This document shows positions 6,874-48,060 of a DNA stretch of 64,000 bases, piece by piece. The position numbers were made by a program, and so were the translations under genes. Location of the stretch: assembly GCA_964650475.1 (NCBI GenBank), contig CAZYRK010000001.1, positions 8,356 through 72,355 of the forward strand, read 5' to 3'. Source of the DNA: an uncultured Candidatus Saccharibacteria bacterium. GTDB lineage: Bacteria; Patescibacteriota; Minisyncoccia; Phycocordibacterales; Phycocordibacteraceae. Positions within the stretch are counted from its first letter, which is position 1, and every line of letters begins with the position of its first letter. A model generated the notes under the pieces. That model was not told the DNA's origin. It worked only from the letters and a program-made list of their open reading frames with translations, and searched no databases.

Positions 6874-6932
6874 AGTCGAACCCCGATTACCACCGTGAGA
6901 GGGTGATGTCCTAGCCATTAGACGATAGGGCC
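6861..6932 (-). tRNA. tRNA-Glu (anticodon CTC)
   Basis: Hand-folded cloverleaf: acceptor GGCCCTA/TAGGGTC, D-stem GTCT/GGAC, anticodon stem TCACC/GGTGG with loop CTCTCAC (T33, anticodon CTC, A37), T-stem CGGGG/CCCCG with loop TTCGACT. CCA is not encoded. Confidence 0.85.
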
Positions 6933-32834: not shown

Positions 32835-33848
32835 TTAAGATTTTGGCTCTATTGTGTTTTGTGGTGTGCCTTTGGCGAAAGCTGTAAGGTTTTCCGCAGA
32901 CGTGTCGAGAATACGCTCGACAGCTTCCTGCGAATTAAATGCGATGTGCGCGGTGACGATAACACGCGGATGATCTATAAGATAATGGTTTGCAAGAGTT
33001 GTCTTTAGTTCTTCTTCGCGCGGATGCGGAAGCGAGAAAAGCCTTGCTTCGTCTTGCATGTCTCCCTCTTCTTCAAGAACATCGAGCCCCGCTCCCGCAA
33101 GCACATTTTCTTGAAGTGCGGTAACAAGTGCCTCTGTTTCAACCACCGCTCCGCGAGCCGTGTTTATAAGATACGCTCCTTTTTTAAACTCGTGGATATT
33201 GTCTTTATTAATCAGGTGATGCGTTTGCGGATTGTACGGAACATGTAGCGTTACTATGTCAGATTTATTCAATAGTTCATTAAGAGATACATATGTAAAA
33301 CCGAGTTCTTTGTCTAGCCCCTCTTTCGGAAAAGCGTCAAACGCGATTACATTCATAGCAAACCCTTTTGCCATTTGTATCGCGTGCACACCGATATGCC
33401 CCGTGCCAACAACACCAATAGTCTTTCCTGAAAGATCAAAACCGCGCAGACCTTCCTGCGAAAAAGACCCTGTATTACTGACACGCTTATACGCATCATA
33501 GATACGGCGCGAAAGAGCAAGGATAAGTGCGAAAGCAAACTCTGCGACAGTATTTACCCCGTAAGAAGGTACGGTACAGACAAGTATCCCGCGTTTTTTT
33601 GCTTCAACAAGATCGATATGGTCAAAACCGGTCGAGCGCGTGGCGATAATTTTCAAATTTGGGAACTTGTCGAGCTCTTTAGCTCCGATATGCGTTGTTA
33701 TAAATATAGACAGCGCTTCGGCATCAGCATCGCCTTCCAGTTCCCCGTCTTTTGAAATAAGAAACTCGGTCTCATAACCGGCTTCGGACAGCCTTTCTTC
33801 TAGGTACTCCTGTTCCCACTCTTCCTCTGCAATGTATACAAGTTTCAT
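32835..33848 (-). CDS. D-isomer-specific 2-hydroxyacid dehydrogenase (lactate/glycerate/hydroxypyruvate reductase type)
   Basis: NAD-binding GVVGTGHIGVHAIQ and catalytic-domain signatures. Adjacent to eno. Confidence 0.75.
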   Translation of the reverse strand: MKLVYIAEEEWEQEYLEERLSEAGYETEFLISKDGELEGDADAEALSIFITTHIGAKELDKFPNLKIIATRSTGFDHIDLVEAKKRGILVCTVPSYGVNTVAEFAFALILALSRRIYDAYKRVSNTGSFSQEGLRGFDLSGKTIGVVGTGHIGVHAIQMAKGFAMNVIAFDAFPKEGLDKELGFTYVSLNELLNKSDIVTLHVPYNPQTHHLINKDNIHEFKKGAYLINTARGAVVETEALVTALQENVLAGAGLDVLEEEGDMQDEARLFSLPHPREEELKTTLANHYLIDHPRVIVTAHIAFNSQEAVERILDTSAENLTAFAKGTPQNTIEPKS

Positions 33849-33857
33849 ATTACGATT

Positions 33858-35057
33858 TTAATTAAGTTCTGTTTCTATTTCTTGCAATCGTTCATATTTT
33901 CTGCGACGTTGCATCTGCCCAAACCCGCCGGCTTTTATACCGTGAGACCCCATTCCATAAGCAAAATCCGCTATGAAAGTGTCTTCTGTCTCGCCTGAAC
34001 GGTGCGAGCAGACTGTAGCCCACCCTGCGGAATGCGTTTTCAAAACAGCTTTTGCCGCTTCAGATACCGTACCTATTTGATTTGGTTTTATAAGCACTGC
34101 ATTTATCGAGTGCTTTGATATAGCGTCCTCAATGCGCTCTGTGTCGGTAACGATTAAATCATCACCTATTACAAGTACCTTGTCTCCAAGTGCCGCTGTG
34201 ATAGAAACAAATCCATCAACATCATCTTCAGCGAAAGGGTCTTCTATCGCATGAAATGGAAACTTGCTAACTAGAGTTTCGTATAGTTCCTGTAGTTCGG
34301 ACGGTGTGTACTTTTTGCCGAGCAATTTGTATGCATCTGTTCCGTCTCGCAATCCGTTTGCGGCAGCATCGATAGCTATCGAAGTGTTTGGATGAGCGCT
34401 AACAAGCTCGGAAAGTATCTCGAAAGGTCTTTCTATCGCTTCAAACTTTGGCGAATATCCACCTTCGTCTCCCATCGGGAGCTCGTTTGTTTCTTTGCGC
34501 AACATTTCACCGAGTGTTGCAAAAGCACTTTCTGCCGTTTTTACAGACTCTGTTACAGTTTTCTCACCCACTACAAACAAATACTCTTGTATCGGTAAAC
34601 GGAAATCTGCGTGTTCCCCACCGTTCATTACGTTTACAAACAAATGAGGGGCAGAAGGTGTGGTGCCGTAGGTATCTGCAAGATACCTCCACAAAGGAAC
34701 ACCTGCCTCTTGCGCGAAAAGTCGCGATGCAGCGATGGAGACAGAGAGGATTGCGTTTGCTCCAAGACGCGACTTGTCCGGAGTTCCGTCTAAGTCAATG
34801 AGGAAGTCATCGATTTCTTTCGTTGAAGCAAAATCTTTTTCTGAAAGTGAGAAAAAAATCTCTCCCTCAAGCGAGGCACACACACCGGAAACCCCGCCAT
34901 CTGCATCACGAAGTTCTTTTGCTTCATGTGAGCCCGTACTTTTTCCGGAAGGAACCGACGCAATCGCCTCAAGAGAATCTGTACGAAGAGTAGTCTCAAC
35001 TGTCTCGCGCCCTCGGCTATCTAAAATAGCTCGCGCATGTATTTCTTTTATTCTCAT
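33858..35057 (-). CDS. eno: enolase (phosphopyruvate hydratase)
   Basis: MRIKEIHARAILDSRG N-terminus and the SHRSGETEDTFIADFA signature. The true start is probably the internal Met at 35057, not the ORF-track 35117. Confidence 0.9.
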   Translation of the reverse strand: MRIKEIHARAILDSRGRETVETTLRTDSLEAIASVPSGKSTGSHEAKELRDADGGVSGVCASLEGEIFFSLSEKDFASTKEIDDFLIDLDGTPDKSRLGANAILSVSIAASRLFAQEAGVPLWRYLADTYGTTPSAPHLFVNVMNGGEHADFRLPIQEYLFVVGEKTVTESVKTAESAFATLGEMLRKETNELPMGDEGGYSPKFEAIERPFEILSELVSAHPNTSIAIDAAANGLRDGTDAYKLLGKKYTPSELQELYETLVSKFPFHAIEDPFAEDDVDGFVSITAALGDKVLVIGDDLIVTDTERIEDAISKHSINAVLIKPNQIGTVSEAAKAVLKTHSAGWATVCSHRSGETEDTFIADFAYGMGSHGIKAGGFGQMQRRRKYERLQEIETELN

Positions 35058-35058
35058 A

Positions 35059-37512
35059 TTACTCTTTTGTACTTTCAGAAGGCTTTTTACCAGAACCTCT
35101 GCCAAGCTCCTCTTCAAGCTTTGCTACGTTTATCATTGTTTTTACAACAACGTCCGAGTTAAGCGACATACTTTCAATCCCGTTCTCAACCAAGAAAGAT
35201 GCGAAGTCCGGAAGGTCTGAAGGTCCTTGTCCGCAAATTCCGATATATTTTCCGCGTTCCTTTGCTTTGGCGATTATTGTCTCAATAAATTTACGTACTG
35301 CCGGATTGTTCTCATTTCCAACAGCGCTTACGATACCAGAGTCTCTATCCAAACCGAGCGTAAGCTGTGTAAGGTCGTTACTTCCGATGGACATTCCATC
35401 GAAGCGGTCGAAGAAATCATCTGCAAGCAATACGTTGCTTGGAATCTCACACATCATATACACAGGCGTAGCTTGTTCTCCTGGGCGAGCATACGATGTC
35501 GGCACGATACCGTGAGCAGACATAATCTTAAGAACCTTATCTGCCTCTTCTGTTGTACGGCAGAAAGGAATCATCGGAATAACATTGTTTAGTCCCATTG
35601 TCTCACGCACTATTTTTAGCGCTTCAACTTCCAGCACAAAAGCTTTCTCAAATTTCGGATCGTAATAACGCGATGCTCCACGCCAACCAATCATCGGGTT
35701 CGACTCCGTCGGTTCATAATCCGCTCCACCCAAAAGTGTGCTGTATTCGTTTGATTTGAAATCTGAAAAACGAACAATCACAGGGCGCGGATAAAACGCA
35801 GCTCCGATACGCGCAATTCCGTAAGACAGTTTGTCGCGATAAAAAGCAACAGGATCTTTCCACCCGACCATTTTCTTTGCAATAGCAAGCCTTAAGGCGT
35901 TTGAAAGCGACTTAAAATCAATAAGTGCCATCGGGTGCACTCCTATATGCGAAGCAATAATAAACTCTTCACGAGCAAGCCCGACACCTTCTACCGGCAA
36001 AAACGAGTGGTCGAAAGCCATGTCCGGTGTCGCAACATTTACCATTATTTTTGTGTCCGGTGTAGGGATTTTCGTAACATCATGTTCATGGATAGCAAAA
36101 TCTGCTTTCCCAGAATACACAGTACCCTCACTACCTATTGTGTCGGCTGTAACAATATCGCCAGTCTTAATAAGGTGTGTTGCACGTTCTGTGCCGACAA
36201 TAGCCGGTACGCCAAGCTCGCGCGAAACAATAGCGGCGTGCGAAGTACGACCTCCGCGATCGGTAATAATGGCAGATGCCATACGCATAATCGGTTCCCA
36301 GTCCGGGTCTGTCATGCTTGTAACAAGCACTTCTCCTTTTTTGAAGGTCGGTATTTTTTTAAGATCGAGAATAACGTGTGCCGGTCCAGTTGCAATGCTT
36401 GAACCCACCGAGATACCTTTTATTATTTCTTTACCATGCGACTTCATTTCAAACTCCTTGAGTTTTGTCATATCGCGCGTAGACTGCACTGTTTCCGGAC
36501 GCGCCTGCACCAGATAAAGCTCGTTTGTGTCGCCATCTTTAGCCCACTCCATATCCATTGGAGACCACTTTCCTGCACGGTCAGAATAATGCTTTTCCAC
36601 AATCATTCCCCACTCTGCAAGAGTGCGAATCTCATCATCGGAAAGAACAAAAGTATGCTGTTCCTCGTGTGTTGCGGAAATAACTTTCGTTTCTTGAATT
36701 CCGGACATCTTTCTGCCTCCGTAAATCATCTTTTTCTTTTTAACACCAGCTTTCTTTTCGATAATAGGGTTCGGTGCGGTATTTAGAGTTTCTTTGAATA
36801 CAAGGTACTCGTCCGGAATAACATGCCCCTGCACAATCATCTCGCCAAGCCCCCATGTCGCGTTAATGACAACGACATTACGAAAACCGGATTCCGTATC
36901 AACAGTAAACATAACGCCAGAAGCGCCCTTATCGCTTCTTACCATTTTTTGTACACCTGCAGAAAGAGCGACCTTCATATGCCCGTACCCTTTATCTATA
37001 CGGTACGAAATTGCGCGGTTCGTAAAGAGAGACGCCATTGTCCACTTAACAGCTTTCAAAACATCTTTTTTTCCACGAATACCCAAATAACTTTCTTGCT
37101 GACCTGCAAAAGACGCCCCTGGCAAGTCCTCTGCGGTTGCACTGGAGCGAACAGCCACATCGGTATTTTTTCCATACCGTTCTTCCATTTGTACATACGC
37201 TGCAAAAATCTCATCTGCAAGATCTTTAGGAAATTTTGTACGATAAATAGCGTTGCGTACCTTCTTTCCGCGCCGTGCCAAGTCCGCGAGGTTTTCTTTA
37301 TTGACACCATCGAGCGTTTTCTCAATAAAAGCATCAAGTCCTGTTTGCTGTAAAAAATAACGGTAAGCGGATGCTGTCGTAACAAAACCCGAAGGAATTC
37401 GTATACCTTTGTCGGTAAGATTGCGTATCATTTCACCAAGAGATGCGTTTTTACCACCGACTTCCGGAACATCATCCATGTTAATGTCTTCCATCCAAAG
37501 AATATGTGCCAT
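35059..37512 (-). CDS. ppsA: phosphoenolpyruvate synthase (pyruvate, water dikinase)
   Basis: N-terminal VGGKNASLGEM; phospho-His region GGRTSHAAIVSRELGVPAIVG; C-terminal PEP-utilising TIM barrel. 817 aa. Confidence 0.85.
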   Translation of the reverse strand: MAHILWMEDINMDDVPEVGGKNASLGEMIRNLTDKGIRIPSGFVTTASAYRYFLQQTGLDAFIEKTLDGVNKENLADLARRGKKVRNAIYRTKFPKDLADEIFAAYVQMEERYGKNTDVAVRSSATAEDLPGASFAGQQESYLGIRGKKDVLKAVKWTMASLFTNRAISYRIDKGYGHMKVALSAGVQKMVRSDKGASGVMFTVDTESGFRNVVVINATWGLGEMIVQGHVIPDEYLVFKETLNTAPNPIIEKKAGVKKKKMIYGGRKMSGIQETKVISATHEEQHTFVLSDDEIRTLAEWGMIVEKHYSDRAGKWSPMDMEWAKDGDTNELYLVQARPETVQSTRDMTKLKEFEMKSHGKEIIKGISVGSSIATGPAHVILDLKKIPTFKKGEVLVTSMTDPDWEPIMRMASAIITDRGGRTSHAAIVSRELGVPAIVGTERATHLIKTGDIVTADTIGSEGTVYSGKADFAIHEHDVTKIPTPDTKIMVNVATPDMAFDHSFLPVEGVGLAREEFIIASHIGVHPMALIDFKSLSNALRLAIAKKMVGWKDPVAFYRDKLSYGIARIGAAFYPRPVIVRFSDFKSNEYSTLLGGADYEPTESNPMIGWRGASRYYDPKFEKAFVLEVEALKIVRETMGLNNVIPMIPFCRTTEEADKVLKIMSAHGIVPTSYARPGEQATPVYMMCEIPSNVLLADDFFDRFDGMSIGSNDLTQLTLGLDRDSGIVSAVGNENNPAVRKFIETIIAKAKERGKYIGICGQGPSDLPDFASFLVENGIESMSLNSDVVVKTMINVAKLEEELGRGSGKKPSESTKE

Positions 37513-37527
37513 ATGTAATTTAATGTG

Positions 37528-38844
37528 TTATGTAATGCGAGCTTTAAGCGCAATTATAAGATCCGAGACGTTTGAACCGGTGTATCCGGTTATAAGAGCA
37601 TCTGCGGTTGCGGTGAAAAAATCATAAGAACTGTGTGATGCGAGATATTCACCAATATCAAGTGCGCGCTCTTCTGCGTGCGCTCTTGTAATATTATCAC
37701 ACAGTGCCCCTGCAAAATCCGTATCGTCGTGTCCATCTGAGGAAAACGGTATTATGATTTCGTCATCGTGAATACGCGCGAGTGCGGAAAGCGCAAGCTC
37801 CTGAGAGCGCCCGCCCTTGCCTGCGTTTTCATTGAGAGTAACGGTAGACTCGCCACCGTAAAGCAGAACAGTGCCCGGCTCCGCTTTGGAGAGTTCGTTT
37901 AAAACATCTTGTGCCACATCGCGCGCTTCACCGGAAAAGCGGTCGGTTACGATACGTGGTTTATACCCTTTTTCTTTAGCGGTTTCCGCCATAGCCTGAA
38001 GAGCCAAGACATTTGTAACAAGAAGCTCATTGTGTACCCGAGCAAAAAACTTTTCGTCTTTAGGGGTCGGAAGCAAAGCGACACCACTAAGCGCACGCAC
38101 GTTATACTTTTCGATAATCGCGCGCGCATCGTCTACGGTTGTTTCATCTTTTACAGTAGGTCCGGATGAAATAAATGAAATATCATTTCCCGGCACATCG
38201 GAAAAAATAAGACTCACTACACGCGCCGGGTACGCCACTTCCGCAAGCTTACCTCCGCGTGCTTTAGAAAGATGCTTACGCACTGTATTCATTTCTTGTA
38301 TTGTCGCACCAACATCGGTGAGCTCTTCAAAAACAGCAACTTCTGTTGCAACGGTTACAGGTTCTTCCGGCAAACACAAAAGAGTTGAGCCTCCTCCGGA
38401 AACAAGCACGATAACGATGTCGTCTTCTTTTAGTAAGTGCAACGTGTCGACTAGTTGCGATGTTGCTTCAACATTTTTTTCTGACGGTTTCGGATGGCTT
38501 CCTAAAAAACTTTTTATTTTCTTAAGTGGCAAACGATGGTTTGTATCCGCCACATCAATAATGGTGCCGCCGGCAATCCTGTCTCCCAAGATTTCTTCCA
38601 GAGCCGACCCTGCGACAACCGAACATTTTCCGGCTCCAACAACCCATATCTTTTGGTCTTTTTTAAGATTGTATGTATTTCCGACGACTGTAAGAGTGTC
38701 GCCACTAAGATTCACCGCCTTTATCAAAGCTGTACGCGTGTCGATTGCGGAGTATCCGGCTTCAACAATTTCAAGAGCATCGCGCCTCTTTTGCGTCTCG
38801 CCAAGAGATTCGGAGTTCTTAATAATCGCTGTCATTATATTCAA
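37528..38844 (-). CDS. glycerate kinase, MOFRL family (glycerate 2-kinase / TtuD-like)
   Basis: GTVLLYGGESTVTL...GKGGRSQELALSA signature of the DUF4147/MOFRL glycerate kinases. Confidence 0.7.
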   Translation of the reverse strand: MNIMTAIIKNSESLGETQKRRDALEIVEAGYSAIDTRTALIKAVNLSGDTLTVVGNTYNLKKDQKIWVVGAGKCSVVAGSALEEILGDRIAGGTIIDVADTNHRLPLKKIKSFLGSHPKPSEKNVEATSQLVDTLHLLKEDDIVIVLVSGGGSTLLCLPEEPVTVATEVAVFEELTDVGATIQEMNTVRKHLSKARGGKLAEVAYPARVVSLIFSDVPGNDISFISSGPTVKDETTVDDARAIIEKYNVRALSGVALLPTPKDEKFFARVHNELLVTNVLALQAMAETAKEKGYKPRIVTDRFSGEARDVAQDVLNELSKAEPGTVLLYGGESTVTLNENAGKGGRSQELALSALARIHDDEIIIPFSSDGHDDTDFAGALCDNITRAHAEERALDIGEYLASHSSYDFFTATADALITGYTGSNVSDLIIALKARIT

Positions 38845-38909
38845 TGATAACAGATGATTTTAAAAAATAATGTAAAACTGGGCGCACCTGTCGAAAAACC
38901 GATTTTTAA

Positions 38910-39668
38910 TTAAAAAGACTCAGAGTCTTTGACTGTCTCGCGTATGTCTTTATGTGACTTTGTAAGAGGCTTACCAAAAAGATTCGTATAAATAAAATTT
39001 ATCGCGTAGCGAGCTCCGGTAGTAAGTACGCCTTCACTGGAAAGGCGCCGCCCTGAAGTGTACATCGGTAGCGCAAAAGTCCATTTCACTTTTCCGACCT
39101 TGTTCAAACGACGTGCCACATCCGTGTCTTCGCCATAAAACTCGATAGTTGTATCAAAACCACCAACTATCTCAAAAGATGAGCGTCTTATTATAAAATT
39201 TCCTCCTTGAAGCATTGCTCCTTTTCTAAACATTTTTAGAAAAAGCTGTGTGATATATCCAAAAAAATAGAAAACCTTCACATACGCGCGCCTTAATATG
39301 GAAAGATCATAATAAATGAACGGACCACTTAAAGCCACAAGTTTTTCATCGCGCTCAAACTCACGGAGCACAGTCTCCAGCCAACCGCCTGGAAGCACTG
39401 TATCTGAATCAATATTTAAAATAAGCTCGCCGGTCGAAGCCTGCATGCCTGCATGACGAGCATGCACGAGTCCTTTTTTGGGTTCGTTTACAATTCGTAC
39501 CATTTCAAAATCGCCGGCGATTTTTGCGGTCGCGTCCGTACTTGCGTTGTTTACCACCACGACTTCGCAATCACACGGCGTGCGCGCGATTTCTTTTTCA
39601 ACCGAAGCAAGACACTTCGCTATGTATTTTTCTTCATTGTATGCCGGTATTACAAAACTGATATGCAT
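38910..39668 (-). CDS. family 2 glycosyltransferase
   Basis: ISFVIPAYNEEKYI and a DSD motif, NIDSDTVL. Confidence 0.7.
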   Translation of the reverse strand: MHISFVIPAYNEEKYIAKCLASVEKEIARTPCDCEVVVVNNASTDATAKIAGDFEMVRIVNEPKKGLVHARHAGMQASTGELILNIDSDTVLPGGWLETVLREFERDEKLVALSGPFIYYDLSILRRAYVKVFYFFGYITQLFLKMFRKGAMLQGGNFIIRRSSFEIVGGFDTTIEFYGEDTDVARRLNKVGKVKWTFALPMYTSGRRLSSEGVLTTGARYAINFIYTNLFGKPLTKSHKDIRETVKDSESF

Positions 39669-39762
39669 AAGTTATATAATAAACAAGATAGCAAAAAGAA
39701 AAAGCCCGGCAAGCAAAGCGAAAGCTTTACTTGCCGGGCTTTTGACGCCACCGGTTAAGAAA

Positions 39763-40401
39763 TCAATACAAATACAAACCGGCAGACACCCAAATAGCAA
39801 TCCCCAGCATATAGAAAGACATTTTTTCTTGTACTCCAAAGCGCCATAATGGGCTAAATTTTGCCTGTCCGAAATATGCCCATAAGGTAAGCAAAACGGA
39901 GGTCATGAATATATCGTTATTTGACACAGGGATTGTAGTCAACCCTGTGTACGCCATAACGATAACCCATGTTGTGAAAGTGGCAAAAAGAATGTGTATG
40001 TACCCCGCCACGGTCACATACCCTCCGTGTGCATGTGCCTCGGGTATGTTCTTGCTTGCCGGAGCATAAACCAACACTGCGAGCAAAAACCACGCCCAGA
40101 AAAAGATCATGAATAATACGAGGCCTCCAAACTGCATGTATTCGAAACTATACTTTTGCACAAGATACGCAACCAACGGACTTATGATGAACAAATCCGC
40201 CCACATACCTCCGTGCTGCATAAACGAATACCCTTTTACACCACGTTCCTCCATTTGTTTTTTTGTGGCGTATCCATCAATTCTGGACGCAACAAACTGC
40301 GCCAAAATTAAAAGAAGCTCCAGACCCAGCACTTCAAAGAAAATCGCATTTGCCTTGATTAATCCCCAAACGACAAAGAACATCTCATGTACATTAAACA
40401 T
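39763..40401 (-). CDS. hypothetical polytopic membrane protein
   Basis: 212-aa hydrophobic ORF, divergent from the gene at 40658. Confidence 0.5.
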   Translation of the reverse strand: MFNVHEMFFVVWGLIKANAIFFEVLGLELLLILAQFVASRIDGYATKKQMEERGVKGYSFMQHGGMWADLFIISPLVAYLVQKYSFEYMQFGGLVLFMIFFWAWFLLAVLVYAPASKNIPEAHAHGGYVTVAGYIHILFATFTTWVIVMAYTGLTTIPVSNNDIFMTSVLLTLWAYFGQAKFSPLWRFGVQEKMSFYMLGIAIWVSAGLYLY

Positions 40402-40496
40402 TTCACTCCTCCCTTTTTATATACACAATTATGATTTTTAATACATTGTTTATAAATGTATCTCCTGTATAAACTATATCTATTTTAGAGCATTAT

Positions 40497-40556
40497 GTCA
40501 AGCGCGCTGAATTAACTCTTGAACTGCAGTTCAAGAGTTAATTCAGCGCGCTTGAC
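40497..40556. repeat. perfect 60-bp palindrome centred on CTGCAG
   Basis: gtcaagcgcgctgaattaactcttgaactg|cagttcaagagttaattcagcgcgcttgac, checked base by base. Confidence 0.9.
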
Positions 40557-40657
40557 TATCGCTTGGCAATCTGGCATTATTATTTTTAGATAAAAGATCC
40601 TTTCAAAAAGTCAACCAACAAAAAGTAATACAAACCCTAAACCTAGAGGAGGTTATT

Positions 40658-41173
40658 ATGGGAACAAGACTTTTAACGCAAAGGCTGGTGCCCCGCCAAA
40701 GAGAACCCATGGATATAGAAACTCTGTCGACAATGGTGTCGACGTTTCCGTGGATCGCCGAGCGCATCGGCGAGACACCTGAGTATGTCCACATAGTGGA
40801 TGCTCAGATGTCTATATTAAGTTACCAACCAATGATTGAGGAAGTAATTTGGTTGTTAAACAAAAAAGGCGAGGTTGTTGTGTTTAGCCCGCCGATCAGA
40901 AAGATTTTGTTCTGGAAACTGCCTGCCAAAAGCTCTGTAAATGGTGTTGTACGGAACGAGGAAGTAGGAGATGTTGTTTATCGTCTCGGAAAGGAAGCTG
41001 AAAAAATCCGTATTGTGCTTTCCTACCACCGAGGTAATGAAACAGCGATTGTGTATCTCCTAGGAGATACACAATCGCTGTACGAAAGTCTCGACGAGGA
41101 ATACCAGCGCGAACGCGAAACCTTTTTACAGTTTGCCACGCGCGCAAGTTTGCTAAACAGTGGGCATCTGTAA
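40658..41173 (+). CDS. hypothetical protein
   Basis: 171-aa ORF preceded by a strong SD, aggagg-N6-ATG, and followed by two tandem terminators. Confidence 0.55.
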   Translation: MGTRLLTQRLVPRQREPMDIETLSTMVSTFPWIAERIGETPEYVHIVDAQMSILSYQPMIEEVIWLLNKKGEVVVFSPPIRKILFWKLPAKSSVNGVVRNEEVGDVVYRLGKEAEKIRIVLSYHRGNETAIVYLLGDTQSLYESLDEEYQRERETFLQFATRASLLNSGHL

Positions 41174-41202
41174 TTTCCGCGTGTTTTCCACCACGCATTC
41201 AA

Positions 41203-41237
41203 AGGTTCGTCGTTTACGACGAACCTTTTTCTTTTTA
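41203..41237 (+). terminator. rho-independent terminator
   Basis: aaaggttcgtcg-tttac-gacgaacctttttcttttt. Confidence 0.7.
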
Positions 41238-41300
41238 AATCGCACTACATATAAAACTTAATAAACAGTGCGCCTTTATAATTAGTGCCCGTTACAACTC

Positions 41301-41337
41301 AAAACGCCCGCCGTTTACGGCGGGCGTTTTTTCTTTT
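41301..41337 (+). terminator. second tandem rho-independent terminator
   Basis: aaaacgcccgccg-tttac-ggcgggcgttttttcttttt. Confidence 0.7.
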
Positions 41338-41398
41338 TATATTATATTTAAGTGGATTGCTTCCCTATCGAAAACTAAATCTAATGTATGCTTATTAA

Positions 41399-43222
41399 AT
41401 GCTTACACGCCCACAATCCTGCTGTGTAAAAAACGTTTTCAATAACTCAGGAGACGTTTCGCTCACAAGTCTTATTTTCGGCGCGCCCCTTATTTTTACA
41501 GTACTCAGCATTATTGGTTTTTTGTTTCACCTGCCACTACTGTATTTAATAGTTATAGCCACTTCCATAGTAACAATTCTCATTCATTCTTATCATGAGA
41601 TTCGTAACGGAAATTTCTCACTCGAATACATAACACTGCTTGCTCTTTTTGTTAGCGCCGGAACAGAAGAATACCTTGCAGGAGCAATTATCGGCACCAT
41701 GTTTGCAATAGGCAGAGTTTTCGAAAAATACACTCTTGCGAGAGTTTTAAAACCTCTCAAAGATTTTTTAGATTTTATTCCGAAAACTGCTCTGATTAAA
41801 AAAGGCGTTTCAAAAACGCGAGAAACACCTATTACAAGCGTACACGAAGGAGACATTGTTGTGGTACATAATGGCAACGTCGTGCCTTTAGATGGTTGGC
41901 TCCTTTCAGAAAACGCGGTATTAAATATTTCAAAACTAACAAATGAACAGGCTCCGAAAATAATCCTGAGAGATGCATTCATCAGAAGCGGTAGTATCAA
42001 TACTGGAAAAACTTTTGAGTTTTTGGTTGCGAACACATCTGCAACATCAACGTACCACCGAGTAGTCTCACTTGTTACGCGAGCCAAAGTCGGCAGAGCA
42101 CACTTCGTGCGCTCTGCCGAAAAAGCAAACACACCGTTTACAATTTTAATACTCGCCGTGGCACTTGGCACATATTTAATAACACACGACCCTTCTCGCA
42201 CACTTGCGGTACTGGCAGTAGCAACAACAAGATCGCTTACTATCGCTACACCGATTGCTTTTTTCGGAGGTATTTCACAAACACTTCGTTCCAACATTAT
42301 AATCAAACATCCTTCCGTACTTGAAAGCCTTGCAAAGGCTTCCGATATCTTTTTTGACAAAACACGCACCCTGACATTCGGCTCGATACATTTTGTTGCT
42401 GTCGATTTATATAATTCGGATTTTTCCGTCACCAGTGCGCTCGCGTATGCGAGCGCACTGGGGCTCCACTCCACACACCCTCTTTCCGAAGCTGTTGTAA
42501 AAACCGCGCACATATGCGAAACACCGATATATTTCGCAACGAAAGTAACAGAACAAAGCAAAAGAGGTATAAACGGATATATAGACGGAATGCCGGTTTC
42601 TCTTACACATACAATTTCCCAAAAAACCGACTACGATATCGCACTCACTCTTTCTGTAAACGAAATACCATACGCAACATTATTTTTTGCAGAAAACATC
42701 GACACTGACACAAAAAAACAATTCCTAAAACTTTCCAAAACAGGATGTAATATTTCAATTTTTACTCAGAAACAATCTGCGTCGACACGAGTTTTTAAAC
42801 AAACGCCAATAACACTACACACCGGATGCACTTCTGAAAAAAAGAGTTCCTTAATCTCCCGAGCAAAACTTGGCGGGAAAATTGTAGCTGTTGTCGGTGA
42901 CGGAATGAGTGATACCCAAACCCTTTCATGTGCAGACGTGGGGATAATGCTTTCAGGTGCTGAAACAGGTACCTGCGTTTATGCAACAAGTGTTGTCGTG
43001 CTTGGAAATAATCCAGAGCATATACGCACCTTAATAAAGATTGCGAACAAAACCGTTTATATAGCAAAACAAAGTATATATATAGGTATAGGTTTTTCTA
43101 TTATAGGGATATGGTTTGCAACCGCAGGAATCATCACTCCTATTAGCGGAGCACTACTGCAAAAAACCGTAGATGTTTTCGTTACATTAAACACTCTTCG
43201 CAACAAAACAGCTGCACAATAA
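41399..43222 (+). CDS. divergent P1B-like P-type ATPase homolog with degenerate catalytic and metal-binding motifs
   Basis: Still has the HP motif (STHPLSEAVV) and a GDGMSDTQTLSCADVGIML hinge. DKTGT is DKTRT, TGES is TNEQ, and the TM6 CPC is replaced (TTRSLTIATPIAF). Confidence 0.6.
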   Translation: MLTRPQSCCVKNVFNNSGDVSLTSLIFGAPLIFTVLSIIGFLFHLPLLYLIVIATSIVTILIHSYHEIRNGNFSLEYITLLALFVSAGTEEYLAGAIIGTMFAIGRVFEKYTLARVLKPLKDFLDFIPKTALIKKGVSKTRETPITSVHEGDIVVVHNGNVVPLDGWLLSENAVLNISKLTNEQAPKIILRDAFIRSGSINTGKTFEFLVANTSATSTYHRVVSLVTRAKVGRAHFVRSAEKANTPFTILILAVALGTYLITHDPSRTLAVLAVATTRSLTIATPIAFFGGISQTLRSNIIIKHPSVLESLAKASDIFFDKTRTLTFGSIHFVAVDLYNSDFSVTSALAYASALGLHSTHPLSEAVVKTAHICETPIYFATKVTEQSKRGINGYIDGMPVSLTHTISQKTDYDIALTLSVNEIPYATLFFAENIDTDTKKQFLKLSKTGCNISIFTQKQSASTRVFKQTPITLHTGCTSEKKSSLISRAKLGGKIVAVVGDGMSDTQTLSCADVGIMLSGAETGTCVYATSVVVLGNNPEHIRTLIKIANKTVYIAKQSIYIGIGFSIIGIWFATAGIITPISGALLQKTVDVFVTLNTLRNKTAAQ

Positions 43223-43293
43223 AACAAAGAACTCTTGCATGTGGATAAACACATTATATTTTTTATGCAAGGTGTTACTGTATAAATAATTGT

Positions 43294-43653
43294 ATGAACC
43301 TCTTAGCTTATCGTGAACATGAAAACCGACCATGGGGTTCGTTTGAACAATTCACTAAAAACGAGCCTTCGACTGTAAAAATAATTTCGGTCAAACCGGA
43401 CAAGCGTCTCTCTTTGCAAAAGCACGCGCACCGCAACGAGTTTTGGTACATAATTTCCGGAAACGGAACAGTAACAATAGGAGAAAAAGAGCTTCAGGCA
43501 AAACCAAACAACTCGTTTGAAGTTCCTGTCCACACGCTTCACCGTATTTCCGCAGGACACGAAGGTATCTCATTACTTGAAATTGCGTTTGGTTCTTTCG
43601 ATGAAAACGATATAGAACGCATTGAAGACGACTTCGGTCGCACCACCCCATAA
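43294..43653 (+). CDS. cupin-domain protein (mannose-6-phosphate isomerase type II C-terminal-like)
   Basis: 119-aa double-stranded beta-helix with His motifs, LQKHAHRNEFWYIISG...HRIS. Confidence 0.55.
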   Translation: MNLLAYREHENRPWGSFEQFTKNEPSTVKIISVKPDKRLSLQKHAHRNEFWYIISGNGTVTIGEKELQAKPNNSFEVPVHTLHRISAGHEGISLLEIAFGSFDENDIERIEDDFGRTTP

Positions 43654-44848
43654 ATTTATGTTCATACTTATCGCGTACACAATTGCGTTTTTTGTTACCG
43701 GTTTTACTGCCAGTGTTATTGTTGGAATTGTTTTTTTCCCTCCTGTACGGAAAAAAATTATCGAGAAGCTTTCAGAGTTTACAAAACATCATGAGGCAAA
43801 AAAACAACCTGAGCTTTTACTCAAACGACACCAAACAAACCCCATTTTAAAACCTCATGCAAATCTATGGGAAGCAGTGTCTGTAATGAACCCGGCGGCG
43901 ATACACCTAGACGGGAAAATCCATCTTATTTATCGAGCTATAGGAGCTGACGGTGTTTCGCGTCTCGGGTACGCAAACAGTAACGACGGTATAAATTTTG
44001 ATACAGTCCTTCCATATCCTGTTTACGCCGTATTGAACCCCGGCGGAGCCGGTTCAATACGGCGTTACTCCCCTGTTTTATATCCTTCCGGAGGTTCGTG
44101 GGGAGGTTGCGAAGATCCGCGCATGGTCGTGATAGATGAAAATGTGTACGTTACATTTAATCTGTTCGATAACTGGGTACTTCGTATCGGTGTAATATCA
44201 ATAAGCAAAAACAACTTCATTGCAAACCGTTTTAATAAATGGAGCGATGCGATTATCCTTTCGAACAGTAATCGTGAAAAAAACTGGATGTTATTTCCTG
44301 AGAAAATCCACGGGAAATTTGCCGTCTTGCACGGCATCATAGACGAAGATGAAAATAAGGTACGCATAGAATACACAGCCCACCTAAACGACTTATCCAA
44401 ACAAAAGTTTGAAACCGTTGACCCGCAAACAGTGCCTGACAAAAAAATCGCTTGGCATATGCACGTGCGCAGTGCAGGCCCTCCGCCGATAAAAACAAAA
44501 TACGGATGGCTCGTGCTCTATCACGCACACGACCAAGAAGAGTCGAGTCGCTATAAACTCGGAGCAATGCTACTCGACCTAAACGACCCGACAAAAATAT
44601 TACACCGATCTCCGCACCCCATACTCGAGCCCGATGCGGTATATGAAAACGATGGTAAGCCCGGGGTTATTTACGCTTGCGGTGCAGTGATAAAAGACGA
44701 TACGATGTTTGTGTACTATGGTGGAGCCGACAAAATAACTGCAGTAGCAAGCACTCCGGCGGAAGACTTTTTACAAGCACTTGTACAAGACAATACAAGC
44801 GCAGATGATGTGGAACTTTCACTTCATGCAAGTTCCGGAGCAAATTAA
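43622..44848 (+). CDS. GH130-family (DUF377) glycoside phosphorylase/hydrolase-like protein with an N-terminal TM anchor
   Basis: VMNPAAIHLDGKIHLIYRAIG and GCEDPRMVVIDENVYVTFN are GH130 signatures. The hydrophobic N-terminus is ILIAYTIAFFVTGFTASVIVGIVFF. The true start may be the ATG at 43658. Confidence 0.65.
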   Translation: MKTTSVAPPHKFMFILIAYTIAFFVTGFTASVIVGIVFFPPVRKKIIEKLSEFTKHHEAKKQPELLLKRHQTNPILKPHANLWEAVSVMNPAAIHLDGKIHLIYRAIGADGVSRLGYANSNDGINFDTVLPYPVYAVLNPGGAGSIRRYSPVLYPSGGSWGGCEDPRMVVIDENVYVTFNLFDNWVLRIGVISISKNNFIANRFNKWSDAIILSNSNREKNWMLFPEKIHGKFAVLHGIIDEDENKVRIEYTAHLNDLSKQKFETVDPQTVPDKKIAWHMHVRSAGPPPIKTKYGWLVLYHAHDQEESSRYKLGAMLLDLNDPTKILHRSPHPILEPDAVYENDGKPGVIYACGAVIKDDTMFVYYGGADKITAVASTPAEDFLQALVQDNTSADDVELSLHASSGAN

Positions 44849-44870
44849 AAATTAATTCAAATAAGAAAAC

Positions 44871-46802
44871 ATGTTTATTGTCCGTCGCGAACCAAGCAAC
44901 CCTATACTTTTACCGCACAACACACGCTCGTGGGAAGCTGTTGCCACTTACAATCCATCTGCCATCCGTACAAATGATGGCGTGCGCATATACTATAGAG
45001 CGCTTGGTGACCCGGACACACTTACTACCCCACCGGCAAGTTTCTCCACGGTTGCAACCGCCTTTTCCGAAGACGGGATTCATTTTCATTCACACCGTCA
45101 AGTAATATCTCCCACAGAACCGTGGGAACAATTCGGGTGCGAAGATCCACGTGCTACTTTTTTCGAAGGCAAATGGTACGTATTTTATACCGCACTAGGT
45201 GGCTTCCCTTTTGGTCCGGACAATATAAAAGTCGGTGTAGCTATCGGTGAAAAACCCGAGGAGCTCACCGAACACCGTCTTGTTACACCATTCAATGCAA
45301 AAGCCGCAACTTTATTTCCGGAGCGCATCGATGGTGATGTGGTTTTAATGCTAACAGCTCATACAGATTGGACCGAGGAGCACCCGTACCCGACAATAGG
45401 CATAGCTCGTGCAAAACAAATCGAAGACTTTTTTGATAGCTCGTATTGGGAAGATTGGCATTCAAACATTGAGCAACACGCACTTGCGGAGCTACGCCGT
45501 TCAGACAATGACCATATTGAAGTTGGGGCAACACCTATCAAGACAAACGAGGGCTGGTTGTTTATATATTCTTATATCCAAAATTATTATGATGAGAGCA
45601 AACGTACCTTTGGTATCGAGGCAGCTATTCTTGACCGTGGAAATCCAAAACGTCTAATCTCACGAACGTACCCTATGCTTGTTCCTGAAGAAGTTTATGA
45701 AAAATACGGACTTGTACCGAATATCATATTTCCTTCCGGAGCTACAATAAACGGCAACATGCTTGAGATATGGTATGGAGCCTCAGATACAGTCTCTGCA
45801 AAATGCTACATTCGACTAAACGACATTTTGCGCGCGCTCGACCCTTCGCGCCCTGCGCGCACTCTTATACGTGCACCACAAAATCCGATACTCGAACCGC
45901 GTGGAAACGGTTTTGAAGAATCCGCAGTATTTAATGCCGGCGCGATAGACCTCGACGGCTCGATATATATCTTATACAGAGCAATGGGTAGCGAAAACAC
46001 ATCTGTAATAGGATGTGCGATTTCAAAAGACGGGGTTCATATCGATGAAAGACTTGATAAACCGATATATATTCCACGCGCGGATTTTGAACAGAAAAAA
46101 GGAGGCTCACACGGAAATTCTGGTTGTGAAGACCCACGTCTTTCTTTAATTGATAATCGTATTTATCTTACGTATACCGCATACGACGGTGTGAACACCC
46201 CAAAAGGCGCATTGTCTTCTATATCTGTCGAAGATTTTAAAGCCCGTCGTTTTGAAAATTGGGAAATGCCGGTGCTCATCACACCAGATAATATAGACGA
46301 CAAAGACATTGGTCTTTTGCCTGAAAAAATTGATGGGAACTTCCTAATCTATCACCGCATAGCGAACCATATCTGCGCTGACATACTTCCGGATATTACG
46401 CTTGGGAAACGTATTTCGCGATGCATAGAGATTATGGGGCCACGCGAAGGTATGTGGGATTCAGAAAAAGTTGGTCTTGCAGGCACACCGATTAAAGTCG
46501 AAGACGGTTGGCTCTTTATATATCACGGGGTTTCGCATCGAGGACGATATCGCCTTGGAGTGGCACTTCTTGCGCATGACGGACTTACCATCTTGGCGCG
46601 TACCGCAGATCCTGTTTTTGAACCCGTTAAACCATATGAACAAGACGGGGCTGTTCATAACGTTGTCTTTTCCTGTGGAAGCGTGGTTCGTGATGACACT
46701 GTTTTCGTATATTACGGTGGAGGTGATCGTGTTACCGGAGTGGCAACAGGTAGCATGAAGCACATACTGGACACTCTTCGCGCAAACAAAACATATGTCT
46801 GA
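44871..46802 (+). CDS. tandem double GH130-like domain protein
   Basis: Two full repeats, each with YNPSAI/FNAGAI...YRA(L/M)G and GCEDPR motifs (GCEDPRATFFEGKWYVFYTA and GCEDPRLSLIDNRIYLTYTA). 643 aa. Confidence 0.65.
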   Translation: MFIVRREPSNPILLPHNTRSWEAVATYNPSAIRTNDGVRIYYRALGDPDTLTTPPASFSTVATAFSEDGIHFHSHRQVISPTEPWEQFGCEDPRATFFEGKWYVFYTALGGFPFGPDNIKVGVAIGEKPEELTEHRLVTPFNAKAATLFPERIDGDVVLMLTAHTDWTEEHPYPTIGIARAKQIEDFFDSSYWEDWHSNIEQHALAELRRSDNDHIEVGATPIKTNEGWLFIYSYIQNYYDESKRTFGIEAAILDRGNPKRLISRTYPMLVPEEVYEKYGLVPNIIFPSGATINGNMLEIWYGASDTVSAKCYIRLNDILRALDPSRPARTLIRAPQNPILEPRGNGFEESAVFNAGAIDLDGSIYILYRAMGSENTSVIGCAISKDGVHIDERLDKPIYIPRADFEQKKGGSHGNSGCEDPRLSLIDNRIYLTYTAYDGVNTPKGALSSISVEDFKARRFENWEMPVLITPDNIDDKDIGLLPEKIDGNFLIYHRIANHICADILPDITLGKRISRCIEIMGPREGMWDSEKVGLAGTPIKVEDGWLFIYHGVSHRGRYRLGVALLAHDGLTILARTADPVFEPVKPYEQDGAVHNVVFSCGSVVRDDTVFVYYGGGDRVTGVATGSMKHILDTLRANKTYV

Positions 46803-47568
46803 TTTACCTTCGCAAGCGATACCAAAATGTGTCATGTTTGACTTGGACAATACACTTGCCAAAAGCAAGCAGTCTCTTGACGAGACAATGGCGCAAACGC
46901 TTACAAAACTTTTGAAAGTTACAAACGTTGCAATAACTTCCGGAGGAAAACTTGAGCAACTCGTTAAGCAGGTCGACAACCAACTTGGTGACGAAGCCTG
47001 TCGCGAGAGACTTTTCTTATTACCGACCTCAGGTGCCTCTCTTTACGTACATACCAACAATACATGGACTCGCATATATGAAGAGACTCTTTCTCCGAAA
47101 GAAGAAAGAGAAATTGCAAACGCTATAAAGATAGCAAACGATACTACGCACACTGTCGATTTTAACCAAAGAGCTTATGGAGAGCGAATCGAGTTTCGTG
47201 GAGCGCAAGTTTCTTTCTCTGCGCTCGGTCAAGAAGCTCCGCTTGATAAAAAACTGACGTGGGACAAGACGCGCGCGAAACGCGAAGCGTTTCGCGCGCG
47301 TCTTGCTCCGATACTAAAAAACTACACAGTGCGCATCGGTGGCACAACGACAATCGACATAACAAAAAAAGGTATCGACAAAGCCTATGGAGTACGCAAA
47401 CTTTCCGAATACCTCTCTATTCCAATTAAACAGATGCTTTATGTCGGCGACGAGCTTAAAGAAAACGGCAATGACGAGGTGGTTATTTCAACAGGTATCA
47501 AAACACACCCTGTTACATCTCCGGACGACACGCGAGATTTTATAAAACAATTTATCTTACATATTTAA
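46795..47568 (+). CDS. HAD-superfamily hydrolase (IIB/Cof-like sugar-phosphate phosphatase type)
   Basis: Motif I VMFDLDNTLA, motif II ITSGG, C-terminal GDELKENGND. Overlaps the GH130 gene stop. Confidence 0.6.
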   Translation: MSDLPSQAIPKCVMFDLDNTLAKSKQSLDETMAQTLTKLLKVTNVAITSGGKLEQLVKQVDNQLGDEACRERLFLLPTSGASLYVHTNNTWTRIYEETLSPKEEREIANAIKIANDTTHTVDFNQRAYGERIEFRGAQVSFSALGQEAPLDKKLTWDKTRAKREAFRARLAPILKNYTVRIGGTTTIDITKKGIDKAYGVRKLSEYLSIPIKQMLYVGDELKENGNDEVVISTGIKTHPVTSPDDTRDFIKQFILHI

Positions 47569-47580
47569 AGACCCATCCAC

Positions 47581-47625
47581 AAGACCAAACACAGCGCCGG
47601 CTTCGCCGGCGCTGTGTTTGGTCTT
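47581..47625 (+). terminator. 20-bp-stem hairpin after the HAD gene
   Basis: aagaccaaacacagcgccgg-cttc-gccggcgctgtgtttggtctt is a perfect stem. Confidence 0.6.
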
Positions 47626-48060
47626 TAGAAAGTAATGTGGCGCGGGTTTTTACACTAAGTTTTGCGGACACTTAGTGTCCGCAAGTGTTTAAGTGTCCGC
47701 AAGTGTTTAAAAGCTGTACATTGCGATGAGTTTTGCGGACACTTAGTGTCGGCAGAAGTGTCGGCAGAACTTGCGGACACTTAGCGCAGAACAAGTTGCG
47801 GACACTTAGTGTCCGCAGAAATGTCCGCAGAAATTAACAACTAAAAAGCGCGCGGTACGTTGCGATGAATGTGATAAAACTCGGGAGAGCTTCCTTGTTC
47901 GCGTTTCGTCCGCGTCATGCTGTTTTGTAATGCAGCGCGGGGTTTTGCGGACACTTAGTGTCCGCAAAAGTAATGTAGCGCGGGATTTTGAGGTTTGGAG
48001 AGACCAGCTAACATTTTGGGAAGGTCTAACCTTCCCAACTTCATTCCGAAGGTTAAAGTT
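47626..48060. repeat. mosaic hairpin-repeat locus 1 (modules A, B, C, D, E, F)
   Basis: At least 6 copies of the palindrome tttgcggacac-tta-gtgtccgcaaa, plus ggtacgttgcgatg, gtaatgtagcgcgNggttttg..gagaccagctaaca and ttgggaaggtctaaccttcccaac modules shared with loci 2 and 3. Confidence 0.8.

Follow-up and report, generated by a model that had tools for sequence, protein, structure and literature searches.

Gene content and organization of the locus

The locus described here lies in a 64,000-nucleotide stretch of an uncultured Candidatus Saccharibacteria genome (assembly GCA_964650475.1, contig CAZYRK010000001.1, positions 8,356 to 72,355 of the forward strand), which is referred to throughout as the window and is numbered from its first letter. 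The window is an ordinary chromosomal stretch (e.g., mraZ/mraW, penicillin-binding proteins, MreBC, tRNA synthetases, sigma-70, primase), and its proteins find their closest relatives in Kaiserbacteria and the Paceibacterota (= Parcubacteria). The functional unit considered here occupies 43294-47568 on the plus strand and consists of four genes in the order cupin, GH130 protein with a transmembrane (TM) segment (T), tandem GH130 protein with an N and a C module (N-C), and HAD protein. It is smaller than the cluster at 37528-47568 drawn by a first-pass annotation, which was made from the letters alone; every gene listed there was found, and the second GH130 protein is indeed internally duplicated, with PF04041 matching in two stretches and two propellers in the AlphaFold2 model. 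Window genes were scored against Pfam and NCBIfam/TIGRFAM models, structures of the tandem protein and T were predicted with AlphaFold2, and Foldseek was run on the tandem model. The features of the unit, with lengths in amino acids (aa), are:

43294-43653, plus strand: cupin, 119 aa (PF01050, 88.3 bits)
43658-44848, plus strand: T, predicted membrane-tethered GH130 protein, 396 aa (PF04041, 136.6 bits)
43661-43735, plus strand: predicted N-terminal TM helix of T (residues 2-26), with a basic helix (28-49) after it in the AlphaFold2 model
44871-46802, plus strand: tandem GH130 protein (N-C), 643 aa (PF04041, 283.9 bits, in two stretches)
44871-45845, plus strand: N module, residues 1-325 of the tandem protein, phosphate site lost
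45846-46802, plus strand: C module, residues 326-643 of the tandem protein, complete beta-1,2-mannoside phosphorylase signature
46795-47568, plus strand: HAD-IIB gene, 257 aa (PF03332, 51.7 bits; TIGR01484, 71 bits)

The mechanical open reading frame (ORF) of T begins at TTG 43622; the probable start is ATG 43658, 4 nt past the cupin stop, which is chosen by gene callers on identical contigs and corresponds to the point at which the orthologues begin. The start of the HAD gene overlaps the stop of the tandem GH130 gene by 8 nt in the window (ATGTCTGA); the corresponding overlap is 4 nt in the loci of the three relatives that were checked. The two genes are confidently predicted to be translationally coupled.

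Relatives of the tandem GH130 protein were sought by a pattern scan of one genome per species, which confirmed at least 556 loci; full-length relatives are thus present in at least 556 species genomes, and every named one belongs to the Parcubacteria. They share 49-75% identity over the full length. For synteny, 80 loci (denoted below by L and a number) were fetched with their flanks and searched with the window's proteins, the denominators being those loci whose flank shows the slot in question. The tandem gene is immediately preceded by T in 71/72 loci and followed by the HAD gene in 69/75, and the cupin precedes T in 40/69. Across these loci, which include Kaiser-, Adler-, Nomura-, Taylor- and Zambryskibacteria as well as other Paceibacterota, the four genes keep one strand and one order, a degree of conservation far beyond chance.

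Two tandem intrinsic-terminator-like hairpins (12-13 bp stems followed by T-runs) are found on the plus strand at 41201-41330, 3' of a 171-aa hypothetical gene (40658-41173), and they are predicted to form the upstream boundary of the plus-strand transcription unit. Between 41399 and 47568 the plus strand is without a terminator-like site of comparable strength (none with more than four G-C pairs). Directly upstream of the cupin, with no terminator between, lies a P1B-type ATPase-like gene (41399-43222, plus strand) with degenerate motifs (DKTRT rather than DKTGT, GDGMSD rather than GDGxND, and no CPC). Ten other loci have homologues with canonical motifs, at 3.2 kb downstream of the cluster in L080 and at 3-4.6 kb upstream in the rest, and the gene in the window may represent an inactivated or repurposed pump.

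Family, fold and active sites of the three GH130 modules

Both GH130 proteins pass the PF04041 threshold of 26 bits (T 136.6, tandem 283.9), and the best NCBIfam model for every module is NF052550, beta-1,2-mannobiose phosphorylase (T 185, N 151, and C 217 bits). The closest solved relatives of all modules are Teth514_1788 and Teth514_1789, members of GH130_6 (E values of 1e-30 to 1e-49, 35-40% identity). The AlphaFold2 model of the tandem protein (predicted local distance difference test score (pLDDT) 89.7, predicted TM-score (pTM) 0.88) consists of two beta-propeller domains with a defined mutual packing, and its top Foldseek matches are the same two enzymes, each aligning on one module with a target TM-score of 0.87-0.89 and 35-36% identity. 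The tandem modules match solved five-bladed GH130 propellers, and the model of T has a pLDDT of 81.9. T and C are 36% identical to each other and 39-40% identical to Teth514_1788, and N is the most divergent (about 30%). From their sequences, all three modules are assigned to a GH130_6-like group. Each of the three module types is monophyletic, which indicates that the triplication is older than the sampled lineages. Of the motifs quoted for both genes in the first-pass annotation, YRA and GCEDPR are shared by all three modules; T alone has NPAAI to the letter, and the tandem modules read NPSAI and NAGAI.

Active-site residues were surveyed in 76 T, 78 N and 78 C orthologues aligned with Teth514_1788, taking the diagnostic residues from PMC7660257. 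The sugar-binding half of the site is intact in all three modules. The proton-donor Asp (equivalent to D104 of Uhgb_MP) is conserved as D153 in T (76/76), D92 in N (78/78) and D421 in C (78/78). The Glu/Lys pair of the +1 subsite, made up of the Glu just ahead of the catalytic Asp (a beta-1,2/1,3 determinant) and a Lys at the position of Uhgb_MP R150, marks beta-1,2-specific members of the family (meta-nodes C4/C6 of PMC7660257) and is invariant in all orthologues (E152/K208 in T, E91/K144 in N, and E420/K478 in C), as are the +1 Arg and the C-terminal Asp.

The modules differ at the phosphate site, where an Arg/His pair divides GH130 phosphorylases from hydrolases in the same diagnostic scheme (PMC7660257), the basic phosphate ligands of the hydrolases being replaced by carboxylates. 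C alone has both members of the pair, R496 (78/78) and H552 (78/78), equivalent to R168/H231 of Uhgb_MP and R161/H214 of Teth514_1788; its full set of residues comprises R370, E420, D421, K478, H495, R496, K533, H552, Y560, R561 and D619. T retains R93, E152, D153, K208, H225, R271, H289, Y299, K300 and D358 and has G226 in place of the phosphate-binding Arg (the R161 equivalent of Teth514_1788), which is present in 0/76 orthologues (S, A, N or G instead); the His (H214 equivalent) persists in 75/76. The other basic residues of the T pocket are also retained (H160, the Arg at position 196 and the Lys at 223). A substitute Arg contributed from a nearby position in T was considered and not adopted, the sole nearby basic column carrying K, R or H in just 50/76 orthologues.

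In N the phosphate pair is gone altogether. N keeps R43, E91, D92, K144 and D306, and 28 full-length homologues show no variation at the first four. Thr stands in place of the Arg (T162 in the MAFFT alignment, T165 in the HMMER alignment; Arg in 0/78) and S234 in place of the His (His in 0/78), and the R223 equivalent is G248 in the window (Gly or Ser in orthologues). Carboxylates have been gained next to each lost ligand: the Asp of an H-T-D insertion (D166, 78/78), a Glu at the G197 position (E217, 78/78) and a Glu at the position of G225 in the Teth enzyme (E250, 77/78). HMMER alignments to Teth514_1788 and Uhgb_MS place H164-T165-D166 of N opposite the canonical H-R-x, and residues 145-179 of N hold no basic residue except R152, which belongs to the FPE(K/R) motif.

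C is thus predicted to be a beta-1,2-mannoside phosphorylase, and T and N are predicted not to be phosphorylases of the canonical kind, because T is without the phosphate Arg and N without both Arg and His. A parallel exists in the sister family GT108, whose enzymes need the equivalent Arg to act as phosphorylases, although the Arg by itself is not enough; an Arg-to-His change abolishes the activity, and strict transferases are without the Arg. The proposal of the first-pass annotation that mannoside phosphorolysis is tied to glycolysis therefore finds a candidate enzyme in C. Its extension to both GH130 genes stands for C, which retains the Arg and the His, and falls for the other two of the three modules.

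Membrane association of T

Nearly all T orthologues (72/76) begin with a hydrophobic stretch, so that the TM anchor noted in the first-pass annotation as unusual for the family is both real and conserved. In the AlphaFold2 model of T, a helix at residues 2-26 is followed by a basic helix (28-49) and then by the propeller. Lys and Arg together average 0.15 ahead of the hydrophobic stretch and 4.5 within the 15 residues that follow, and the count after exceeds the count before in 71/71 orthologues. Given the positive-inside rule, this skew indicates an N-out/C-in orientation with a cytoplasmic catalytic domain. The N-terminus is thus predicted to be a conserved membrane tether that holds the enzyme at the inner face of the membrane. 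A secretion signal peptide was rejected as a reading of this segment, which has almost no basic residues before a helix of about 25 residues and a strongly basic stretch after it. T modules without a TM segment occur in L089 and L091.

Predicted mannose phosphate partner enzymes

The cupin scores 88.3 bits against PF01050, the C-terminal domain of mannose-6-phosphate isomerase (cut-off 23.6; profile positions 11-116 of 116). Against TIGR01479, the model of the bifunctional GMP/PMI enzymes, it matches the C-terminal part only (82 bits, cut-off 373). The motifs RPWG (12-15) and LQxHxxRxExW (41-50), together with H83, are conserved in 43 orthologues. The cupin shares its domain and the first two motifs with the type II phosphomannose isomerase (PMI) domain of GMP/PMI (PF01050; TIGR01479), from which it differs in being a stand-alone protein of 119 aa without a guanylyltransferase domain. 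In L091 the cupin slot, ahead of a T-like gene and an N-C gene, is taken by an unrelated type I PMI (PF20511/PF21621), and this non-orthologous replacement reinforces the PMI role. The cupin is best read as a type II mannose-6-phosphate isomerase-like protein, in agreement with the likeness proposed at first.

The HAD protein had been described as a phosphatase, a description that the comparisons do not support. It scores 51.7 bits against the phosphomannomutase (PMM) model PF03332 (cut-off 22.4) and 71 bits against TIGR01484 (HAD-SF-IIB), and 16/16 matches in the PDB are mutases (phosphomannomutases or alpha-phosphoglucomutases), with no phosphatase among them. The best solved match is the alpha-phosphoglucomutase (alpha-PGM) of Lactococcus lactis, PgmH (4BND, E=7e-29), followed by PMM1/PMM2 (E=2e-14). 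Like these enzymes, the protein has the DxDxT nucleophile, GDxxxxGND and the cap motifs EFR and (S)A(I/L)GQ, which appear across 71 orthologues as D16-x-D18-x-T20, EFR, ALGQ and G218-D219...G225-N226-D227; it differs from them in that its gene is here coupled, by prediction, to a GH130 phosphorylase gene. The ten NCBIfam families matched at E<=0.01 include no model of a mannosyl- or glucosyl-3-phosphoglycerate phosphatase, assuming that the library has such models. The protein is best read as a phosphohexomutase of the PMM/alpha-PGM family, whose substrates may be mannose or glucose phosphates. The steps that the two partners would provide, from mannose 1-phosphate (Man1P) through PMM to mannose 6-phosphate (Man6P) and through PMI to fructose 6-phosphate (Fru6P), are the established fate of GH130 products (PMC4264767).

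Glycerate and glycolytic genes on the minus strand

Several genes of glycerate and lower glycolytic metabolism lie on the opposite strand near the unit, together with ppsA, which is also on the minus strand near eno:

32835-33848, minus strand: D-2-hydroxyacid dehydrogenase
33858-35117, minus strand: enolase (eno), mechanical ORF with a TTG start
37528-38844, minus strand: MOFRL/DUF4147 glycerate 2-kinase
38910-39668, minus strand: GT2

As called mechanically, the enolase ORF runs 59 nt into ppsA; an internal Met is the first residue of the enolase-like N-terminus (MRIKEIHARAILDSRG), which puts the true start near 35057 and removes the overlap.

The first-pass annotation had linked these genes to the GH130 cluster, with a mannosyl- or glucosyl-glycerate among the possible substrates. 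In such a scheme the GH130 and HAD proteins would make or break the glycosyl-glycerate, and the glycerate kinase, enolase and phosphoenolpyruvate synthase would feed glycolysis. GT81 is the family of glucosyl-/mannosyl-3-phosphoglycerate synthases. The two gene sets do lie within about 6 kb of each other in this single window, L080 has a GT2, a glycerate kinase, an enolase and a 2-hydroxyacid dehydrogenase within 12 kb downstream, and a few GH130-GT81 fusions are recorded in CAZy (PMC7660257). Against this, within 10 kb of the operon in 60 loci, glycerate kinase was found once, enolase once, ppsA not at all and 2-hydroxyacid dehydrogenase twice. The candidate genes are also on the opposite strand, with unrelated genes and the two strong terminators in between. 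No GT81- or GT78-type gene was matched in the window, its GT2 reaches 38.7 bits against the glucosyl-3-phosphoglycerate synthase model (cut-off 262), and the HAD protein is of the PMM type, with no phosphoglycerate-phosphatase model matched. The minus-strand genes are accidental neighbours of the operon, and the glycosyl-glycerate scheme is essentially excluded by the synteny and by the nature of the HAD protein.

A proposed route between fructose 6-phosphate and beta-1,2-mannosides

The four genes can be arranged in a short pathway. The cupin would interconvert Fru6P and Man6P, the HAD-type mutase would interconvert Man6P and alpha-Man1P, and the C module, as a GH130_6-type phosphorylase, would catalyze the reversible reaction of beta-1,2-(Man)n with inorganic phosphate (Pi) to give alpha-Man1P and (Man)n-1. 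T and N, which keep the -1 and +1 sugar subsites and the proton donor and have had the phosphate site dismantled, would most likely act on the same glycan without phosphate. With its carboxylate-rich pocket, N, fused ahead of C, could be hydrolase- or transglycosylase-like. T, in which only the key Arg is gone, would sit at the inner membrane face as a candidate primer or transferase, or as a processor of a membrane-proximal substrate. The substrate would be an endogenous pool of beta-1,2-mannosides, built and consumed by the cell as a reserve, a hexose-phosphate/Pi buffer or a glycan precursor. An endogenous pool is favored because the 80 loci show no conserved importer, solute-binding protein or secreted glycosidase alongside the operon, whereas both enzymes leading from Fru6P to Man1P accompany it. 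The core of this proposal, a PMI, a PMM and a phosphorylase acting in series, is considered probable; for the full statement, that the operon links Fru6P to endogenous beta-1,2-mannosides on the cytoplasmic side, the balance of evidence is about even.

Recurrent neighbors, fused variants and alternative roles

Recurrence of flanking genes in the 80 loci was assessed by clustering all flanking ORFs. No neighbor is conserved like the four core genes. The most frequent are a PIF1 helicase (28) and an FAD-linked oxidase (25), followed by PAP2_C-like (21), DedA/VTT (19), BacA (15) and small GT2 (14-15) genes. The only recurrent transporter is an exporter-type ABC-2 pair (ATPase gene 15/80, permease 10/80). 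The PAP2_C-like, DedA/VTT, BacA and ABC-2 genes are related to polyprenyl-phosphate recycling or to glycan export, and they recur beside the operon in different lineages. Searches of the window with tblastn for ManC, ROK, PGI, pyruvate kinase, type I PMI, GtrA, NUDIX, ABC-2 and FAD oxidase returned nothing.

Individual neighborhoods give some detail to these counts. The FAD-linked oxidase (PF01565 and PF02913, D-lactate/glycolate oxidase type) has no counterpart in the window; elsewhere its gene often follows the PMM gene closely, in the same orientation (e.g., L045 12692-14611). In L045 (5485-8379) genes for a GtrA/DPMS_TM protein, a NUDIX hydrolase and an ABC-2 permease/ATPase pair lie directly upstream of the operon. 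In the window a small GT2 (252 aa) is paired with a 212-aa multi-pass membrane protein without a Pfam match (38910-40401, minus strand); the same pair is found 4-8 kb from the operon in L005, L007, L032 and L040, often with a second GT2. A second small GT2 also occurs in the window at 24509-25234, after a P-type ATPase gene.

Variant architectures were collected with a full HMMER scan using the N module, followed by look-ups of selected matches, and the order of modules is constant across the T-N-C, TM-T-C and N-C-X fusions. In L089 (2018-10916) a TM-less T-N-C fusion of 971 aa overlaps the end of a ManC gene directly upstream, which supports mannose phosphate partners for the GH130 modules. 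The same-strand run there comprises ManC, the T-N-C fusion, a nucleotide-sugar dehydrogenase, an epimerase/dehydratase and a 652-aa processive GT2, and looks like an exopolysaccharide operon; it is represented by one contig of one sample. In L091 the type I PMI is followed by a T-like gene and then by an N-C protein with an extra domain (N-C-X); this protein and the T-N-C triple fusion are singletons and are to be taken with caution. Three contigs (e.g., L092 (8001-10094) and L093) carry a TM-T-C fusion of 697 aa without N, followed by a PMM gene. In L090 a stand-alone N gene adjoins a further GH130 gene, and BacA, VIT1 and a GT2 lie in the vicinity.

These neighborhoods bear on two explanations other than an endogenous cytoplasmic pool. 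One, the main proposal of the first-pass annotation, is catabolic salvage: imported environmental or host beta-mannosides would be trimmed or hydrolyzed by T and N and phosphorolyzed by C, the Man1P passing through mutase and isomerase into glycolysis with a saving of one ATP per hexose. This role is documented for GH130 phosphorylases of Bacteroides, Ruminococcus and Thermoanaerobacter, the phosphorylase signature of C is complete, the carboxylate-rich pocket of N resembles the change from phosphorylase to hydrolase, and PMM and PMI are exactly the downstream enzymes required. Fermentative or glycolytic genes are sometimes close by (pyruvate kinase in 4 loci, ROK and PGI in L007, the FAD-linked oxidase in 25/80 loci, and eno/ppsA in this window). 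The characterized catabolic GH130 clusters, however, include importers, solute-binding proteins or secreted glycosidases, none of which is conserved in the 80 loci, and at least 556 species retain relatives of a core gene of the operon despite their very small genomes. Beta-1,2-mannosides are rare as environmental substrates, which also counts against salvage. Salvage leaves the tether of T and its lost phosphate Arg unexplained, and the triple fusion of L089 stands in a biosynthetic context (ManC, processive GT2, nucleotide-sugar dehydrogenase). On this evidence, salvage appears rather unlikely.

The other explanation is assembly of an envelope glycoconjugate, in which T and N-C would build or edit a beta-mannan chain, attached to a lipid-linked acceptor on the cytoplasmic side of the membrane, before export, with Man1P (or GDP-mannose, GDP-Man) supplied through PMI and PMM as the donor. 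It accounts for the conserved anchor of T and the predicted position of its catalytic domain, and it draws on the PAP2_C-like, DedA/VTT, BacA/UppP, small GT2 and ABC-2 ATPase genes counted above, at least one of the first three being present in 36/80 loci. The genes directly upstream of the operon in L045, the T-N-C fusion after ManC with a 652-aa processive GT2 in L089, and the GT2 and 212-aa membrane protein about 3-4 kb upstream of the cupin in the window point the same way, and weak GDP-Man transferase activity is known in beta-1,2-acting GH130 phosphorylases. None of these neighbors is as conserved as the core genes, however, and their counts are inflated by gene order inherited from common ancestors. 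Neither the window nor 79/80 loci contain ManC, phosphorolysis run in reverse gives polymer synthesis only a weak thermodynamic drive, T is without the Arg that also helps to bind the donor phosphate(s) in Uhgb_MS (R202), and the T modules of L089 and L091 have no TM segment. Envelope assembly is thus an unlikely function for the operon.

The proposed endogenous beta-1,2-mannoside route also has several points against it. All three modules fall below the NF052550 equivalog cut-off of 450 bits, the closest characterized enzymes are only 35-40% identical to them, and the Glu/Lys rule for beta-1,2 specificity is empirical, so that the +1 sugar or aglycone may be other than mannose. The roles given to T and N rest on residues lost and gained, any equivalence of the new carboxylates of N to the catalytic Glu pair of BT3780 (E227/E268) is conjectural, and N is dispensable in at least one lineage, as the TM-T-C fusion illustrates. 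Phosphorylases are usually degradative in vivo, where Pi greatly exceeds sugar 1-phosphate. No mannan primer or dedicated synthase was identified, and with ManC near the operon in just 1/80 loci (L089), GDP-Man-dependent synthesis is not encoded locally. The absence of transporters holds for a 20-kb view rather than a whole genome, and the PAP2_C-like, DedA/VTT or BacA genes (36/80) and the ABC-2 ATPase (15/80) would fit an envelope-glycan role at least equally well.

Other features of the window

The stretch 1-6400 of the window is low in GC (0.34-0.37, versus about 0.43-0.46 in the rest). It encodes a 1117-aa PLD-like/SNF2-type helicase and a Fic-domain protein and is adjoined by a tRNA-Glu gene (6860-6932); it may be an acquired island. 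Two tRNAs, and nothing else, were found with Rfam in the window. GC skew is negative in all 2-kb bins except 46001-48000 (cumulative -2.74), reminiscent of the strong compositional disparity between strands reported for some genomes of the candidate phyla radiation (CPR; PMC7143001). A 1083-aa protein encoded at 29475-32726 on the minus strand combines CBM_4_9, a right-handed beta-helix and a C-terminal peptidoglycan-binding domain, and may be a surface or host-directed polysaccharide-active protein.

Significance and comparison with known systems

With relatives in at least 556 species, the four-gene unit is likely to be central to sugar handling in the Parcubacteria, whose metabolisms are among the smallest and least understood of any bacteria. 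If the proposed route is correct, an unrecognized intracellular or membrane-associated beta-mannoside would exist in the Parcubacterial radiation, and these would be the first GH130 modules that retain the sugar subsites and have shed the phosphate site in two ways, one of them on a membrane tether. The N-C protein would then be a natural fused pair in which to study the change from phosphorylase to hydrolase or transferase. The GH130 proteins presently carry labels such as 'beta-1,2-mannobiose phosphorylase', 'GH43/DUF377 hydrolase' or 'hypothetical'; for the neighboring gene, labeled 'HAD hydrolase', phosphomannomutase is the better reading, and CPR metabolic reconstructions would change accordingly. 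Four uncharacterized GH130-GH130 sequences were listed in CAZy (PMC7660257), and two GH130 genes have been noted in a Microgenomates genome; a literature search found no study of GH130-GH130 proteins, of a membrane-tethered GH130 or of this operon.

Among characterized GH130 enzymes, the beta-1,2-mannosidases of subfamily GH130_3 (BT3780 and BACOVA_03624) resemble N in their proton-donor Asp, adjacent Glu and beta-1,2 Lys and in the replacement of basic ligands by carboxylates. N is more distant from BT3780 (E=2e-6) than from Teth514_1789 (E=3e-31), scores 50.8 bits against NF058598 (cut-off 550), is without the signal peptide that GH130_3 mannosidases often have, and is fused to a predicted phosphorylase. 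Uhgb_MS (PDB 9ERG; ACS Catal 2025, PMC12814180) shares the beta-1,2 linkages and the same subsite residues. Dual phosphorylase/transferase (GP/GT) enzymes of this type take GDP-Man or Man1P, and contacts within the dimer shape the donor site (PMC12814180). By comparison, the N-C tandem, whose two modules are confidently packed in the model (pTM 0.88), may amount to such a dimer joined covalently. Uhgb_MS itself belongs to GH130_4 and has a lid loop and K184/R202/R242, and T and N are without the R202 equivalent.

The mannogen system of Leishmania (GT108, MTP1-7) shares with the operon the propeller fold, the beta-1,2-mannan chemistry (predicted for the operon) and the coexistence of Arg-containing and Arg-less paralogues. 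Leishmania MTPs include phosphorylases with the Arg and strict transferases carrying a His, which together run an intracellular cycle of synthesis and degradation of a reserve mannan. The modules are not GT108 members: no PDB sequence match to GT108 MTPs was found at E<=1e-3, and GT108 structures are distant from the tandem protein in Foldseek (TM-score about 0.65, 13-15% identity). The Arg is replaced by S, A, N or G (T) or by Thr (N) in the Parcubacteria and by His in the Leishmania MTPs, and the operon has no sign of the GDP-Man supply of the Leishmania cycle. A bacterial counterpart of this system, derived from GH130 rather than GT108 modules, is proposed tentatively, as possible but doubtful. 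In such a counterpart the tethered, Arg-less T would prime or extend a beta-1,2-mannan, N-C would trim and phosphorolyze it, and PMI and the HAD-type PMM would couple the polymer to Fru6P. If so, ultra-small symbionts would possess a carbohydrate and phosphate buffer that is free of nucleoside triphosphates, or a lipid-anchored beta-mannan, and the operon would indicate where to find relatives of the type of bacterial enzyme that reached trypanosomatids by horizontal transfer.

The Thermoanaerobacter pair Teth514_1788/1789 has the same five-bladed propeller, proton-donor Asp and Glu/Lys pair as the modules of the window, and shares the Arg/His pair with C. In both organisms paralogous GH130 genes stand side by side, which suggests a division of labor. 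The Thermoanaerobacter enzymes are both canonical, soluble, single-module phosphorylases, encoded in a cluster with a five-gene ABC importer, a GH5, ManC and a GT4; the operon of the window is without an importer or ManC and has three modules, two of them without phosphate ligands, one tethered and two fused, with a PMI and a HAD-type PMM as partners. Taken together, the proposed operation of the operon most resembles that of the Thermoanaerobacter GH130_6 pair joined to the standard PMM/PMI route, with a division of paralogues by the phosphate Arg like that among the mannogen enzymes of Leishmania.

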